This document shows, in pieces, positions 20,718-32,124 of a DNA stretch of 64,000 nt. The stretch spans positions 32,240,001-32,304,000 of the forward strand of contig OX597830.1 of the NCBI GenBank assembly GCA_951406725.2, read 5' to 3'. Position 1 is the stretch's first letter; every line of letters begins with the position of its first letter. A program made the translations under genes and the position numbers. Source of the stretch: Octopus vulgaris. Lineage: Eukaryota. Below the pieces are notes generated by a model that was not told the origin of the DNA, did no database searches, and saw nothing but the letters and a program-made list of their open reading frames with translations.

Positions 20718-21321
20718 AATTTATATATTTATTTTTGCTAATTCATTTTGTCTCTTTGTCTTCTCTCTTTGTGCTGTATGAACATTTGGTGTGGTTTAGA
20801 GCCAAGTTTTGGCTGCTATATCTAGCATGGCGGTATCTCTTAGACACCCTTAATTATAATTTTATATACATGCATATATATACGAATGGTTTCTTTCAGT
20901 TTCCGCCTACCAAATACCTTCACAAGACTTTGGTCAGCCCAAGGCTATAACAAAAGTTATATATCCAAAGTGCCACGGAGTGGGACTGAAACCTGAACCA
21001 TGTGGTTGGGAAGCCACAAACAATTTACTCAGTGGTCATATTAACTACTTTACTGATTAGTGGGGAGGGAGTAAGTTTTGCCTTTTGCTCAGAGCCATTT
21101 ATGATTGTAGCAGCTCCTTTTGAGTGCGGAGAAAGACTTCATATTTTTGTTTCTCGTCAGATGATGACAATTGGCTAATGTCGATAATAGATATTTCCCT
21201 ACTTTATTCAGGTACATCAATTCCTTCTCCACGTTCCAAATTCTTGTAACAAGGGCAACCACGTGTCAGTCTTCGTAATTGTAACTCATACTTTCTTCCA
21301 TTTTAAAACAACTCAGCATTC

Positions 21322-21464
21322 ACCTTATTTACATTTGACAGATATTTGTCCTCATCTTGTTTGTAGTTAACACAACGTTTCGGCTGATATACCCTCCAGC
21401 CTTCATCAGGTGTCTTGGGGAAATTTCGAACTTGGGTTCTCATTCTTAAGGTATTTTTCGATGC

Positions 21465-21533
<69 letters not shown>

Positions 21534-21796
21534 ATGTAACTACCTGAAATCGAACTCGGAATCTTGGGGTTAGTAGCCCGCGCTCTTAACCACTACACCA
21601 TAATAATAACATCCTCGAAAAATACCTTAAGAATGAGAACCCAGTTTCGAAATTTTCCCAAGACACCAGATGAAGGCTGGAGGGTATATCAGCCGAAACG
21701 TTGTGTTAACAACAAAAAAGATGATGACAAATATACGTCAAATGTAAATGATGTAAATAATGTACATAATTCCTCATCTCTTAAATATGGAACTGT
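21322..21796. mobile_element. Inverted-repeat cassette with a hammerhead in each arm (Penelope pLTR-like), 12-bp TSD
   Basis: Arms at about 21328-21470 and 21600-21748 are inverted; AACTCAGCATTC at 21310-21321 and 21797-21808. Confidence 0.85.
21369..21414 (-). ncRNA. Minimal type-I hammerhead ribozyme, intact core
   Basis: GACAC-CTGATGA-A-GGCTG(GAGGGTATAT)CAGCC-GAAA-CG-TT-GTGTT; palindromic AACGTT stem III. Confidence 0.75.
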
Positions 21797-21844
21797 AACT
21801 CAGCATTCCTCTACAAACGCAATGATTTCACGCAGACTTTGATT

Positions 21845-22160
21845 TGATCGGTCTCACAATCATGAGCTAGTGAGTTCGATTCCCAGATCGGGCTGTGAGG
21901 TGTGTTCTTCGGCAAGACACTTTATTTCACGTTGCTCCTATTAACTCAACTGCAGAAATGAGTTACGACATCACTAGTGCCAAGCTGTATCGGCCTTTGT
22001 CTTTCCCTTAGATAACATTGGTGGTGTGGAAAGTGGAGGCTGGTATGCCTGGTTGACTGCTGGTCTTCCATAAACAATCTTGCCCGGACTTATACTTCGG
22101 AGAGTAACTTTCTTGGTGCAATCCTATGGTCATTGATGACCGAAGTGGGGTCTTTACTCT
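21845..22160 (+). mobile_element. tRNA-derived SINE with GCAAGACACTTTATTTCACGTTGCTC core
   Basis: GAGTTCGATTCCC B-box; similar core at about 41475 (+) and 11030 (-). Confidence 0.75.
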
Positions 22161-28420: not shown

Positions 28421-29025
28421 GTGGAGGCGCAATGGCCCAGTGGTTAGGGCAGCGAACTCGCAGTCGGAGGATCGCGGTTTCGATTCCCAGACCGGGCGTT
28501 GTGTGTGTTTATTGAGCGAAAAAAACACCTAAAAAGCTCCACGAGGCTCCGGCAGGGGGTGGTGATCCCAGCTGTACTCTTTCACCACTTTTTCTCCCAC
28601 TCTTTGTATTTTGTATTTTATGTGTAGATGTATATATATAGATGTACATGTAATATGTACACATATATATACACATATGGAGGCGCAATAGCCCAGTGGT
28701 TAGGGCAGCGGACTCGCGGTCGGAGGATCACGGTTTCGATTCCCAGACCGGGCGTTGTGTGTGTTTATTGAGCGAAAACACCTAAAGCTCCACGAGGCTC
28801 CGGCAGGGGGTTGGAGGTGGGGGTGGCGACCCCTGTTGTACTCTTTCGCTCAAACTTTCTCTCACTCTTTCTTCCTGTTTCTTGTCCCCGACTTCCTGCG
28901 CAACCGCTGAGCCTCGATGCTCTCGGTGTCGGGGGTTGACCTGTTTGCGGGTCTTACGAATAGCAAAGGAACACGTTTCGAACTTCTCCCACTGGGACGA
29001 AGATCGCTTCGCTCAACAAACAAAC
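28421..29025 (+). mobile_element. Two tandem SINE family C copies separated by a Helitron-derived spacer
   Basis: GGAGGCGCAAT(G/A)GCCCAGTGG heads at 28422 and 28679. Confidence 0.85.
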
Positions 29026-29067
29026 AAACCACCAACATCAATATCACCATCACCACCACAACTGCTG

Positions 29068-29455
29068 CCACCTAATAAGCGAGAATTTGACAGGTTTCCG
29101 GGAAAGCGAAACGACTCACGTAACAGTGAAGTTTGGGGTTAAGAGTTTGATACTTTGGGGATGCATAAAAAGTGATGGTTCAAGAAAGTTGGTTAAAATT
29201 GATGGTAACGTGAATAGTGCCAAATACATACAGTTGCTGAAGGACAATTTAATACCAGACTTGGATGAAGGTGAGATTTTTCAGCCTGATGGAGCTCCAT
29301 GCCAAAGATCACATGCAGCACAGCAGAGTATGGCTGATGAGGGTGTTATTGTACTGAAAGATAGGACAGCTCGGAGCTCTGACTTAGATATCATCGAGCA
29401 AATGTGGACAGAGCTAAAGAGAAGAGTTCGTCAGAAGAACCCACGCAATCTTGAA
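29068..29455 (+). mobile_element. Tc1-family (DD34E-type) transposase fragment
   Basis: TVKFGVKSLILWGCI...NSAKYIQLL...IFQPDGAPCQ...SSDLDIIEQMWTELKRRV (cf. FQQDxAPCH...SPDLNPIExxW). Confidence 0.88.
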
Positions 29456-32124
29456 TTTTTCACATACAATAACTTGTGCATCGCTAACACATTCTTTGCC
29501 AACAAGACATCCCACAAGGCATCTTGGAGACATCAAAGATCTCACCACTGGCATCAGCTGGATCCCATCATTACACCAAGACCCTTTCTGAATTCTGTTC
29601 AACTGTCTCGTAGTTACCATAGTGCGGATTGTGACACAGATCATTCACTAATAAGAAGCAAGATGAGGATTCTGCCTAAAAAGTCCATCACTCCAAGAAA
29701 AGGGGCCGACCATGCATTAACACTGCCAGAACCTCCGACCCTACGCTGCGACAATATCTTGCTGTTTCTATCAAAGTTGCCCTCAGTAGCTGCCCAACCA
29801 TCTTTGCTGAAAGTAGGTGGAATTATATCAGGGAAGCTTTGTATACCACATCAATAGATACTTTCGGCATGAGAGAAAGGCAAAACCCAGATTTTGTTCA
29901 GTGCTGGGCTCTCAGAGCTGGAAACAGTTATCGAAACAAAGCGTGCAGCTCTGATGTAATACAAGAGTGATTCTTCTATAAAGTCACTCGAAGAACTCAG
30001 AAAGGCAAGAAATAAAATCCAACTGACTGCCAGACGCTGTGCAAATAGGTATTGGCAGGAAATCTGTCAGAGTATCCAGTCAGCTGCTGACAGTGGTGAC
30101 ACCCGTGGGATGTATGCCGGTTTGAAGAAGGCCCTCGGTTCATCTGCAACCAAGTCAGCCCCTCTGAAATCAACTACTGGGGATCTCATCAAGGATCAAA
30201 GCAAGCAAATGGATAGCTGGGTGGAGTACTACCAGGATCCCTGCTCACGAGAGACCACGATAGCTGAGGCTGCAATAGAGGGTGTCGAGATCTTGCCAGT
30301 CATGTATGAACTTGACAGTCTGCCATCTATAGCAGAGCTCACCAAGGCTATTGACTCCCTAGCAAGTAACAAGGCTCCGGGAAAAGACGGCATCCCCTTA
30401 GAGATCATCAAAACCGGCAAAAACACCATCCTGCTTCGGCACATTCATGAGCTTCTGTGTCAGTGCTGGGAAGAGGGTACAGTCCCTCAGGATATGCGGG
30501 ATGCTAACATCATTACGCTTTACAAAAACAAAGGTGACTGTGGTGATTGTAACAATTACCGTGGAATAACTCTTCTAAGCACTGTTGGAAAGGCCTCTGC
30601 TCGCGTTATCCTGTCCAGGCTGCAACTGCTTGCTTCTCGAATTTATCCAGAATCGCAGTGTGGCTTTAGAAGAAGCAGATCAACTATTGACATGATATTC
30701 TCCATACGCCAACTTCAGGAGAAGTCCGGAGAGCAGAAAATGCCATTATATATGGCCTTCATTGATCTGACAAAGGCGTTTGACTTGGTTAGTAGAAAAG
30801 GCCTCTTCATCCTGCTCCAAAAAATCGGATGTCCACCAAAGCTGCTGAGGATCATCACATCTTTCCATGATGATATGCAAGGCACCATACAGCACAATGG
30901 TTCAACATCAGCCGCCTTCCAAATAAAAAATGGGGTAAAGCAAGGTTGTGCCCTTGCTCCTACATTATTTGGCATCTTCTTCTCGCTGCTGCTGTCACAT
31001 GCCTTTGTGACATCAGATGATGGAGTGTTTCTGCACAGTAGAAGTGATGGGAAACTGTTCAATCTCTCGCGTCTGCGTGCCAAGACCAAAATCAGATCAA
31101 GGAGATGCTATTTGCTGATGATGCTGCTCTGGTATCACACACAGAAGAAGCCCTACAAAGGCTCATCAACTGTTTTGAGCAAGCATGGGGCAACTTTGGC
31201 TTATTTATCAGCCTCAAGAAGACCAACATCATGGGTCAGGTTACATCGACCATCTCAAACATACATATTGGAGTCCACAGACTACAGGAGGTGGAGACGT
31301 TTACCTATCTTGACTCTGCCGTCACCTACAACCTCTCCCTTGATACTGAGCTCAATATACGCATTGGCAAGGCAGCTGCTGTGATGGCCCAACTCATCAA
31401 ACGCGCATGGGACAACAATAAGCTGACCAAGACCACAAAAATGAAGATTTACCAGGCATGTGTACTTAGCACTCTACTGTATGGAAGTGAGACTTGGACG
31501 CCATACACACGCCATACGTCGCCTAAATATCTTTCACCTGCGCTGCCTCCGGAAAATCCTTCGCATCAAATGGCAGAATCATGTCCCCAACAAAGACGTC
31601 TTCAAGCAAGCAGGAATACCAAGCATGTTTGCACTCCTCACACAAAGACGTATGAGATGGCTTGGGCATGTTAGCCGTATGAAAGATGGCAGAATCCCCA
31701 AGGACATACTCTACGGAGAGCTTGCTAGGGGCACTGGGTCTGTGGGAAAACCGTTCTTACGATACAAGAATGTTTGCGAAAGGGACATGAATGCCTGCAA
31801 CATCAATATTACCAGCTAGGATGCAGTTGCCAGCAACCGTGGAGATTGGCGACGTACCGTAAAATAGAGAACATAAAGGAGTGACATAGAGGGAGAGGAG
31901 AAATAGAAAGACAAGAAAAGACGTCAACAAGAAAATATGACATTACAACCAGCCAGGCCAAGTCTTCGCTACATTTGCGGCACCTGCCAGAGAGAGTGTT
32001 TGTCCAGGATAGGACTACACAGCCACAGCAGGAGATGTATTAGGACATGAAATGTAAAAGCCGGACTAGATTATTTTATGCGCAACTCCATTGTCTCCCG
32101 AGACAAAAAGGATGCCAGCAACAA
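29450..32124 (+). mobile_element. RTE-clade LINE, 5'-truncated, frameshifted: APE end, RT and C-terminal C2H2 finger
   Basis: HWHQLD..SADCDTDHSL (APE); KAPGKDGI, NYRGITLLS, QCGFR, AFIDLTKAFD, GVKQGCALAP, LFADD (RT); YICGTCQRECLSRIGLHSH; 3' end CCATTGTCTCCCGAGACAAAAAGGATGCCA. Confidence 0.96.

Follow-up and report, generated by a model that had tools for sequence, protein, structure and literature searches.

Insertions of Penelope-like elements (PLEs) leave a published footprint, in which an inverted truncated copy adjoins the insertion and a 30-40-bp tail is present on one end (PMC3846280, PMC8557442), and the TSDs described with it are 8-10 bp long (PMC3846280, PMC8557442). For Poseidon of the anole, the tail length is reported to equal the spacing of two internal RT start sites, and the protein to cut and extend both strands (PMC11167929). 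The minimal hammerheads in PLE pseudo-LTRs (pLTRs) are described as weakly active and dimer-dependent (PMC4209133), and the Poseidon hammerhead as needing protein for cleavage and being dispensable for insertion in vitro (PMC11167929). Another relevant group is TRIMp3, whose autonomous partners have been argued to need Pol II and hence not to share the repeat (PMC10886601). The published octopus repeat annotation lists Penelope families, with no detail on a pLTR head in the available part of that article (PMC13282606).

The window analysed here is a 64,000-nucleotide stretch of the Octopus vulgaris genome (contig OX597830.1, positions 32,240,001 to 32,304,000), and at 21310-21808 it contains a cassette which, as such, is an ordinary Penelope footprint. 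We consider it probable that the cassette consists of head-to-head truncated pLTR copies of an old, abundant PLE with an RT + GIY-YIG-type ORF, and that the template likely began at the head. The parts of the cassette, in window positions, are these:

21310-21321, plus strand: left copy of the TSD, 12 bp, AACTCAGCATTC
21322-21467, minus strand: short arm, part of the pLTR, with the ORF start (ATG 21443-21441) and 41 codons; its 3' end is the family's 'short' 3' end, at about arm position 148
21369-21414, minus strand: minimal type I hammerhead with an intact core, inside the ORF (a motif reading)
21468-21531, minus strand: (AAT)n linker between head and ATG, which reads (TTA)21 on the plus strand
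21532-21603, minus strand: tRNA-like head, the 5' end of the pLTR and a likely Pol III promoter
21557-21546, minus strand: B box of the head (a motif reading)
21600-21590, minus strand: A box of the head (a motif reading)
21601-21603: head-to-head junction with approximately 3 nt of microhomology in the sequence, which may have served in joining
21604-21796, plus strand: long arm with an AAT stub, the ORF start (ATG 21633) and 55 codons; its 3' end is the 'long' end, at arm position 185
21662-21707, plus strand: second hammerhead with a CAGAUGA core change, predicted to be inactive
21760-21796, plus strand: tail of approximately 37 bp, on one arm only
21797-21808, plus strand: right copy of the TSD, 12 bp, 100% identical to the left copy (AACTCAGCATTC)

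The inverted arms (21318-21476 and 21600-21758) are 159 nt long and 91% complementary, and they translate in the same frame. At the junction, the minus-strand copy ends 2-3 nt upstream of the A box, where it abuts the plus-strand copy's AAT stub. An earlier note on this DNA had described a 12-bp TSD around two inverted arms, each with a minimal hammerhead, and a (TAT)n tract and tRNA-like head between them. This description stands: the TSD copies are identical, the arms and hammerheads are present, and the (TTA)21 tract is followed by a head whose A and B boxes, read on the minus strand, make the note's label of a Pol III-type head appear right. The note was also right that the cassette inserted in one retrotransposition event, as the TSD already shows. 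The parts of the cassette are not chance sequences, because exact 28-mers from the head and hammerhead occur 2083 and 3523 times, respectively, in the 2.8-Gb genome, versus 0 times for reversed controls.

The cassette lies beside a decayed Helitron Rep/helicase remnant (23284-22167, minus strand, best tblastn E about 2e-6), with a SINE-like repeat at approximately 21853-22160 between the two. The remnant is also seen at approximately 21853-21150 (minus strand), broken by the SINE-like repeat and the cassette. When the cassette is removed in silico, one Helitron frame aligns across the TSD in motif order, with a score of 41 for one query (reached in 0/300 shuffles) and 33-34 for four more, and the other two queries listed aligned on one side only. 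The claim that the helicase reading resumes across the cassette is thus weakly confirmed. A helicase frame across the TSD fits a single insertion. Pfam and PDB searches of the flanks gave no match. For three organism labels, contigs cross from the left flank into the arm and continue there for 26-30 bases, which is below the 31-base threshold and so a weak hint that the insertion is shared. No empty-site joint was present among the 15 joints listed of 454, and the left flank was single-copy at first look, so there is no paralogous empty site. Elsewhere in the window, at 28964-31381 on the plus strand, are two open frames (297 and 474 aa) that we take to resemble LINE ORF2.

The left hammerhead consists of CUGAUGA, one extra A before stem II, a 5-bp stem II, GAAA, a 5-bp stem I, a stem III made of the palindrome ACGU, and the triplet GUU, with a predicted cut between 21374 and 21373. 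Its stem III is predicted to be formable solely in a dimer. The intact core, palindromic stem III and GUU triplet of the left arm and the CAGATGA of the right arm are all as the earlier note gave them, and its assignment to the Penelope-type minimal hammerheads agrees with the architecture published for these (PMC4209133); by analogy, the left hammerhead fits the minimal, dimer-dependent, weakly active kind. CAGATGA is a private change (0/84 sampled arms), and the core is intact in 41/84 sampled arms and in the family majority. The Rfam check that the note had proposed gave no hammerhead match (21250-21900, E up to 10). Rfam searches of the window, the cassette and a second head matched neither a hammerhead nor a tRNA, and ARAGORN found no tRNA in the cassette, so the labels for hammerhead and head rest on motif reading. 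Free folding of two hammerhead arms as a dimer did not produce the hammerhead dimer, and the fold of the left arm by itself is no more stable than that of shuffled sequences (z -0.18). Because a dimer is predicted to be necessary and the two copies here cannot share a strand, the hammerhead is a passenger in this cassette.

The arms are coding. They comprise the opening 41-55 codons of an ORF of approximately 830 codons with an RT and a GIY-YIG-like motif (2482 nt from ATG to stop in locus L285), and the 55 residues of the right arm match the N-terminus of P0003, an 847-aa full-length homologue (residues 18-39, E 7e-6). Among 30 loci picked on the hammerhead, six share common sequence upstream of the head and a seventh has it in its inverted half, and this sequence encodes the C-terminus of a PLE-like protein. 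A 28-mer at the ORF stop occurs 596 times in the genome. When loci were picked on the ORF end, the head came after the ORF stop, separated by a short spacer, in 30/30 (a set that includes five near-duplicates in two groups), and at least part of an arm followed in 29/30. When they were picked on the 5' part of the ORF, the arm continued directly into the ORF in 13/30, and the frame running from within the arm into the ORF is open for 244 codons. A full head is kept before the ORF in one of these 13 loci (L248) and a partial head in two others (L256 and L285), and both L283 and L285 carry the pLTR, holding the ORF start, at both ends of the ORF. Because the repeat adjoins both ORF ends and the arm codes for the N-terminus, head + (AAT)n + arm is a pLTR, and the hammerhead is inside the ORF. 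As a side observation, two ORF-linked insertions recur almost unchanged, flanks included, across L165-L169 (contig C1, 7.9-9.05 Mb), which points to local segmental duplication.

The element has a single ORF with a PLE-type RT (RVT_1 E 5.8e-8, and E 2.7e-6 on a 569-aa open frame) and 2735 protein homologues at E<=1e-30. At residue 461 of the 569-aa frame is VYSIPYSCGRLYKGET, a motif that we take to be GIY-YIG-like. The Pfam GIY-YIG model (PF01541) did not match the family's endonuclease segment, and PF01541 is annotated in 3 of the 120 homologues listed of the 2735. A PDB search with the ORF matched no solved structure. Identity to a second PLE family of the octopus genome is 27.5%, and the Penelope/Poseidon clade labels for the element are ones that we assume. 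A search for sister families based on P0003 returned only the cassette's own PLE family. P0003, a PLE protein with 55% identity, keeps the hammerhead-coded peptide at its N-terminus, and it is the one case among 23 long homologues checked. The longest open frame is at least 569 aa (150 scored), and the longest read-through with one stop is at least 753 aa (53 examined); with such decayed frames, the family looks old.

Short and ORF-linked copies are alike in sequence. Their majority base is the same at 79/79 head and 185/185 arm positions, each group diverges 6-9% from the majority, and the few skewed sites fall within the picking 28-mer or a stretch prone to indels. Long coding copies are two-armed in the same way, and their inversions extend into the ORF.

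Copies were drawn both with the whole cassette and with the head. The cassette query gave 6561 first-look candidates, of which 40 were scored, and this set is biased toward two-armed copies. The unbiased set is the first 70 head-pattern places on contig C1, reduced to 69 by dropping one duplicate insertion. Both arms are present in 37 of these 69 loci, an inverted arm only in 6 and a direct arm without an inverted one in 17, and 9 heads have no arm within 750 bp. The inverted pair thus recurs with different TSDs, which is the outcome the earlier note had asked about. Some inverted part is present in 48/69 loci, and the inversion point varies: it can be inside an arm, in the linker, in the head, between two full heads or deep in the ORF. 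A few loci (e.g., L057 and L098) have an extra arm on the same strand.

Arm ends cluster at arm positions of approximately 137-157 and 180-185. Both ends could be measured in 35 two-armed loci, with a long end at approximately 180-185 and a short end at 131-162. The pairing was long/short in 33 loci, short/short in 2 and long/long in 0, so a tail of approximately 35 bp is present on one end in 33/35. In 20 loci it is the inverted side that carries the long end, and in 13 the direct side. TSDs of at least 7 bp flank 22 of the 35 (12 of these are 11-15 bp), versus 14/175 for shifted controls.

In the 15 viewed heads that have no direct arm, the AAT linker continues either as a long AAT expansion or into another repeat. 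The linker varies in length, and in other copies, too, other retroelements have often inserted into it, displacing the arm from the head (L010, L019, L053, L061, L070, L091, L092, L094, L099, L103 and L109), and several of these loci have recurring LINE-like ends.

We propose that the PLE's own protein likely wrote the cassette in one event. Judging from the Poseidon work (PMC11167929), it would have cut both DNA strands 12 bp apart, and reverse transcription would have been primed 125-165 nt into the ORF, at two internal sites separated by approximately 35 nt. One cDNA would have reached the 5' end of the RNA at the head, the other would have stopped in the AAT linker, and the two may then have been joined by microhomology. 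The template itself may have been made by RNA polymerase III, starting approximately 13 nt upstream of the A box. If priming is internal, a full-length mRNA and a short solo-repeat RNA would both yield the cassette, and because either template suffices, a separate non-autonomous lineage is unnecessary.

On tRNA-type promoters, Pol III starts approximately 13 nt upstream of the A box, and it terminates at runs of T. The repeat begins with tRNA-type promoter boxes and is therefore likely to be read by Pol III: A and B boxes are near its 5' end, and the family majority fits, at tRNA spacing, what we take to be the A/B-box consensus. The 5' ends of copies also bear on this. Of the 69 copies, 63 begin within -27 to +24 of the A box and 6 continue into the ORF. 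An improved reference allowed 61 ends to be placed, of which 56 are at 0 to -14 (two of these being ORF-linked copies stopped by indels), none at -15 to -20, one at -21 and four at -43 or beyond, with 8/69 ends unplaceable. Where copies continue beyond the head, they do so for a median of approximately 390 nt, so random truncation would put approximately 12% of ends in the head window, and the pile-up has a rough binomial P of 1e-50 against it. A hairpin with a 5-bp stem sits at -14 to -3, and three of the eight ends at -14 are fold-back forms.

Because Pol III stops at T runs, these were counted. On the sense strand of the 2597-nt majority line there are 0 runs of 4 T, compared with a mean of 4.5 in mononucleotide shuffles (P 0.006) and 2.6 in dinucleotide shuffles (P 0.056); synonymous-codon shuffles of two ORF parts gave P 0.13 and 0.24, so the deficit is weak against the stricter nulls. 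In 101 kb of natural copies the density is 0.48 runs of 4 T per kb, and at most 4 of approximately 50 copies have any given TTTT site in common. Of 13 control ORF sets, 11 have 1.4-8.6 T runs per kb, including an intact PLE family of equal T content (4.3), and two are about as poor, a Helitron ORF (0.35 per kb) and a window ORF (0.7). That Helitron ORF (L294, a 954-aa open frame in the locus, 1473 aa in a second reading) has 1 run of 4 T in 2.9 kb, versus 6-9 per kb in two other Helitron families.

RNA reads came from three raw runs of one study, with approximately 6% read and strandedness unstated. In those runs, the repeat is covered about a hundredfold more deeply than the ORF, both orientations are alike, and there is no start or end pile-up on the repeat, a pattern as expected from passive transcription of scattered copies and neutral as to start site and cleavage. 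No cut-site-to-cut-site RNA joint was seen among the 15 joints listed of 59. From the indirect signs of the 5'-end limit and the T runs, we regard it as likely that Pol III transcribes at least a short RNA, and as possible that it transcribes the whole ORF. A fuller version is more tentative, and we rate it as distinctly less likely than its opposite: an autonomous coding PLE swapped its promoter for a tRNA-type Pol III one and keeps its 2.6-kb sense strand free of terminators, its uncapped Pol III RNA serving as the mRNA and also, via internal priming near the 5' end, giving rise to the SINE-like stubs in their thousands.

The same Penelope origin could also be combined with a Pol II template, in which case the A and B boxes would be left over from a captured SINE head and the pile-up of ends would be caused by RT folding back at the hairpin. 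The hairpin and fold-back junctions suit this explanation, since such a structure could stall RT on a longer RNA, and palindromes are known at pLTR 5' ends (PMC3846280). Characterised PLE promoters are described as overlapping a 5'-UTR intron and giving poly(A) RNA (PMC8557442). The head is also 62-71% similar to other tRNA-type SINE heads in the same loci, and ORFs with few T runs occur without such a head. We nevertheless judge a Pol II template unlikely, because the majority A and B boxes keep their fit and tRNA spacing, the limit of the 5' ends coincides with the expected Pol III start, and TTTT sites are not shared beyond 4 of approximately 50 copies. Much less likely still is that a SINE mobilised by Penelope (tRNA head, AAT and pLTR tail) forms a lineage of its own, and that the coding element acquired this head as well. 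Short copies do outnumber ORF-linked ones (63/69 in the head-picked set, and 2083 head versus 596 ORF-end 28-mers), and a short unit that has no TTTT could be re-transcribed from solo copies; however, short and ORF-linked copies have no diagnostic difference, and the head is present at all 30 ORF-end loci. A SINE lineage that shares only a 3' tail with its partner does not describe these copies, which share the whole unit, head included, with the coding element. The short RNA would function like a SINE yet belong to no separate family.

The earlier note had concluded that the cassette is a protein-free, ribozyme-bounded, retrozyme-like element. That conclusion fell, since the arms are the 5' end of an ORF and the head is fixed in the terminal repeat of a coding element. 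A fixed double-hammerhead cassette moving as one such unit might seem to be favoured by its clean TSD and by the presence of both arms in 37/69 loci, but we find it scarcely credible: the ribozymes are on opposite strands and therefore cannot bound one RNA, a transcript across the whole cassette folds as one long hairpin (-238 kcal/mol) that buries both of them, the inversion points vary, the arms are coding and the long end can be on either side (20 versus 13). As for a non-LTR retrozyme, the hammerheads are not head-to-tail on the same strand, and the unit is not non-coding, the arm being the ORF's N-terminus. Other GIY-YIG PLE families were considered as partners in 40 loci; none shares the arm, and L130 merely has a copy of the cassette's element nearby. 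Some of the loci viewed (L121:1245-3587, L122, L037, L042 and others) hold a young PLE family of near-identical copies with an intact 781-aa RT + GIY-YIG frame, which adjoins (AT)n microsatellites and is unrelated to the cassette's pLTR.

We therefore return to the preferred reading, i.e., truncated pLTR copies of a coding PLE whose template likely began at the head. The unusual trait of this family is a pLTR that begins with tRNA-type A and B boxes, and the rest is a known kind of element. If Pol III does read the coding element, a 2.5-kb retrotransposon ORF would be made by the polymerase of small RNAs, the boundary between SINE and autonomous element would be blurred, and the usual view that Pol III is fit only for short non-autonomous elements, as argued in PMC10886601, would be contradicted. 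Short copies, which number in the thousands and have a definite 5' limit and paired long/short 3' ends (33/35), also offer a clean genomic test of RT start-site use, i.e., of how two start sites known in vitro serve two cut strands. Among the literature matches listed, none was found to describe a PLE whose pLTR contains a tRNA-type promoter, and Repbase, Dfam or the library of PMC13282606 may hold the family.

The closest known systems are the EN+ PLEs Poseidon_Ac of the green anole (PMC11167929) and Adineta Pen2a (PMC3846280). As described in the available parts of those papers, they share with the octopus family one ORF with RT plus, putatively for the octopus family, a domain of GIY-YIG type at its C-terminus, a pLTR that holds the ORF start with a minimal hammerhead overlapping it, an inverted truncated copy with a 30-40-bp tail on one end and a TSD of approximately 9-12 bp, and two 3' ends that match two RT start sites. 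Unlike these elements as described, the octopus pLTR begins with tRNA-type A and B boxes followed by an (AAT)n linker, and most octopus insertions stop at the tRNA-type head. Its hammerhead resembles the minimal ones of PLE pLTRs in having an extra base between 9 and 10.1, a G10.1-C11.1 pair and a palindromic stem III that needs a dimer, and differs in its GUU triplet, a word absent from the main text of PMC4209133 as available.

Metazoan non-LTR retrozymes (PMC7229834; bioRxiv 10.64898/2026.07.22.740005) are similar in their type I hammerhead, kinship to PLE pLTRs and TSD of more than 4 bp. As these sources present them, however, they are head-to-tail tandems, non-coding, with same-strand ribozymes and circular RNA, whereas the octopus cassette consists of head-to-head coding pLTR stubs. 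The SINE-like alpha repeats of Schistosoma, as reviewed in PMC6765202, likewise have a Pol III-type promoter followed by a hammerhead; they are non-coding, whereas in the octopus the putative promoter and the ribozyme are in the terminal repeat of a coding element. Finally, the TRIMp3 elements Cassandra, Helenus and Ajax are described as having a small-RNA-derived Pol III promoter inside the terminal repeat (PMC10886601), much as the octopus repeat appears to have. They are non-autonomous LTR elements, whereas in the octopus it is the coding element itself that carries the head.
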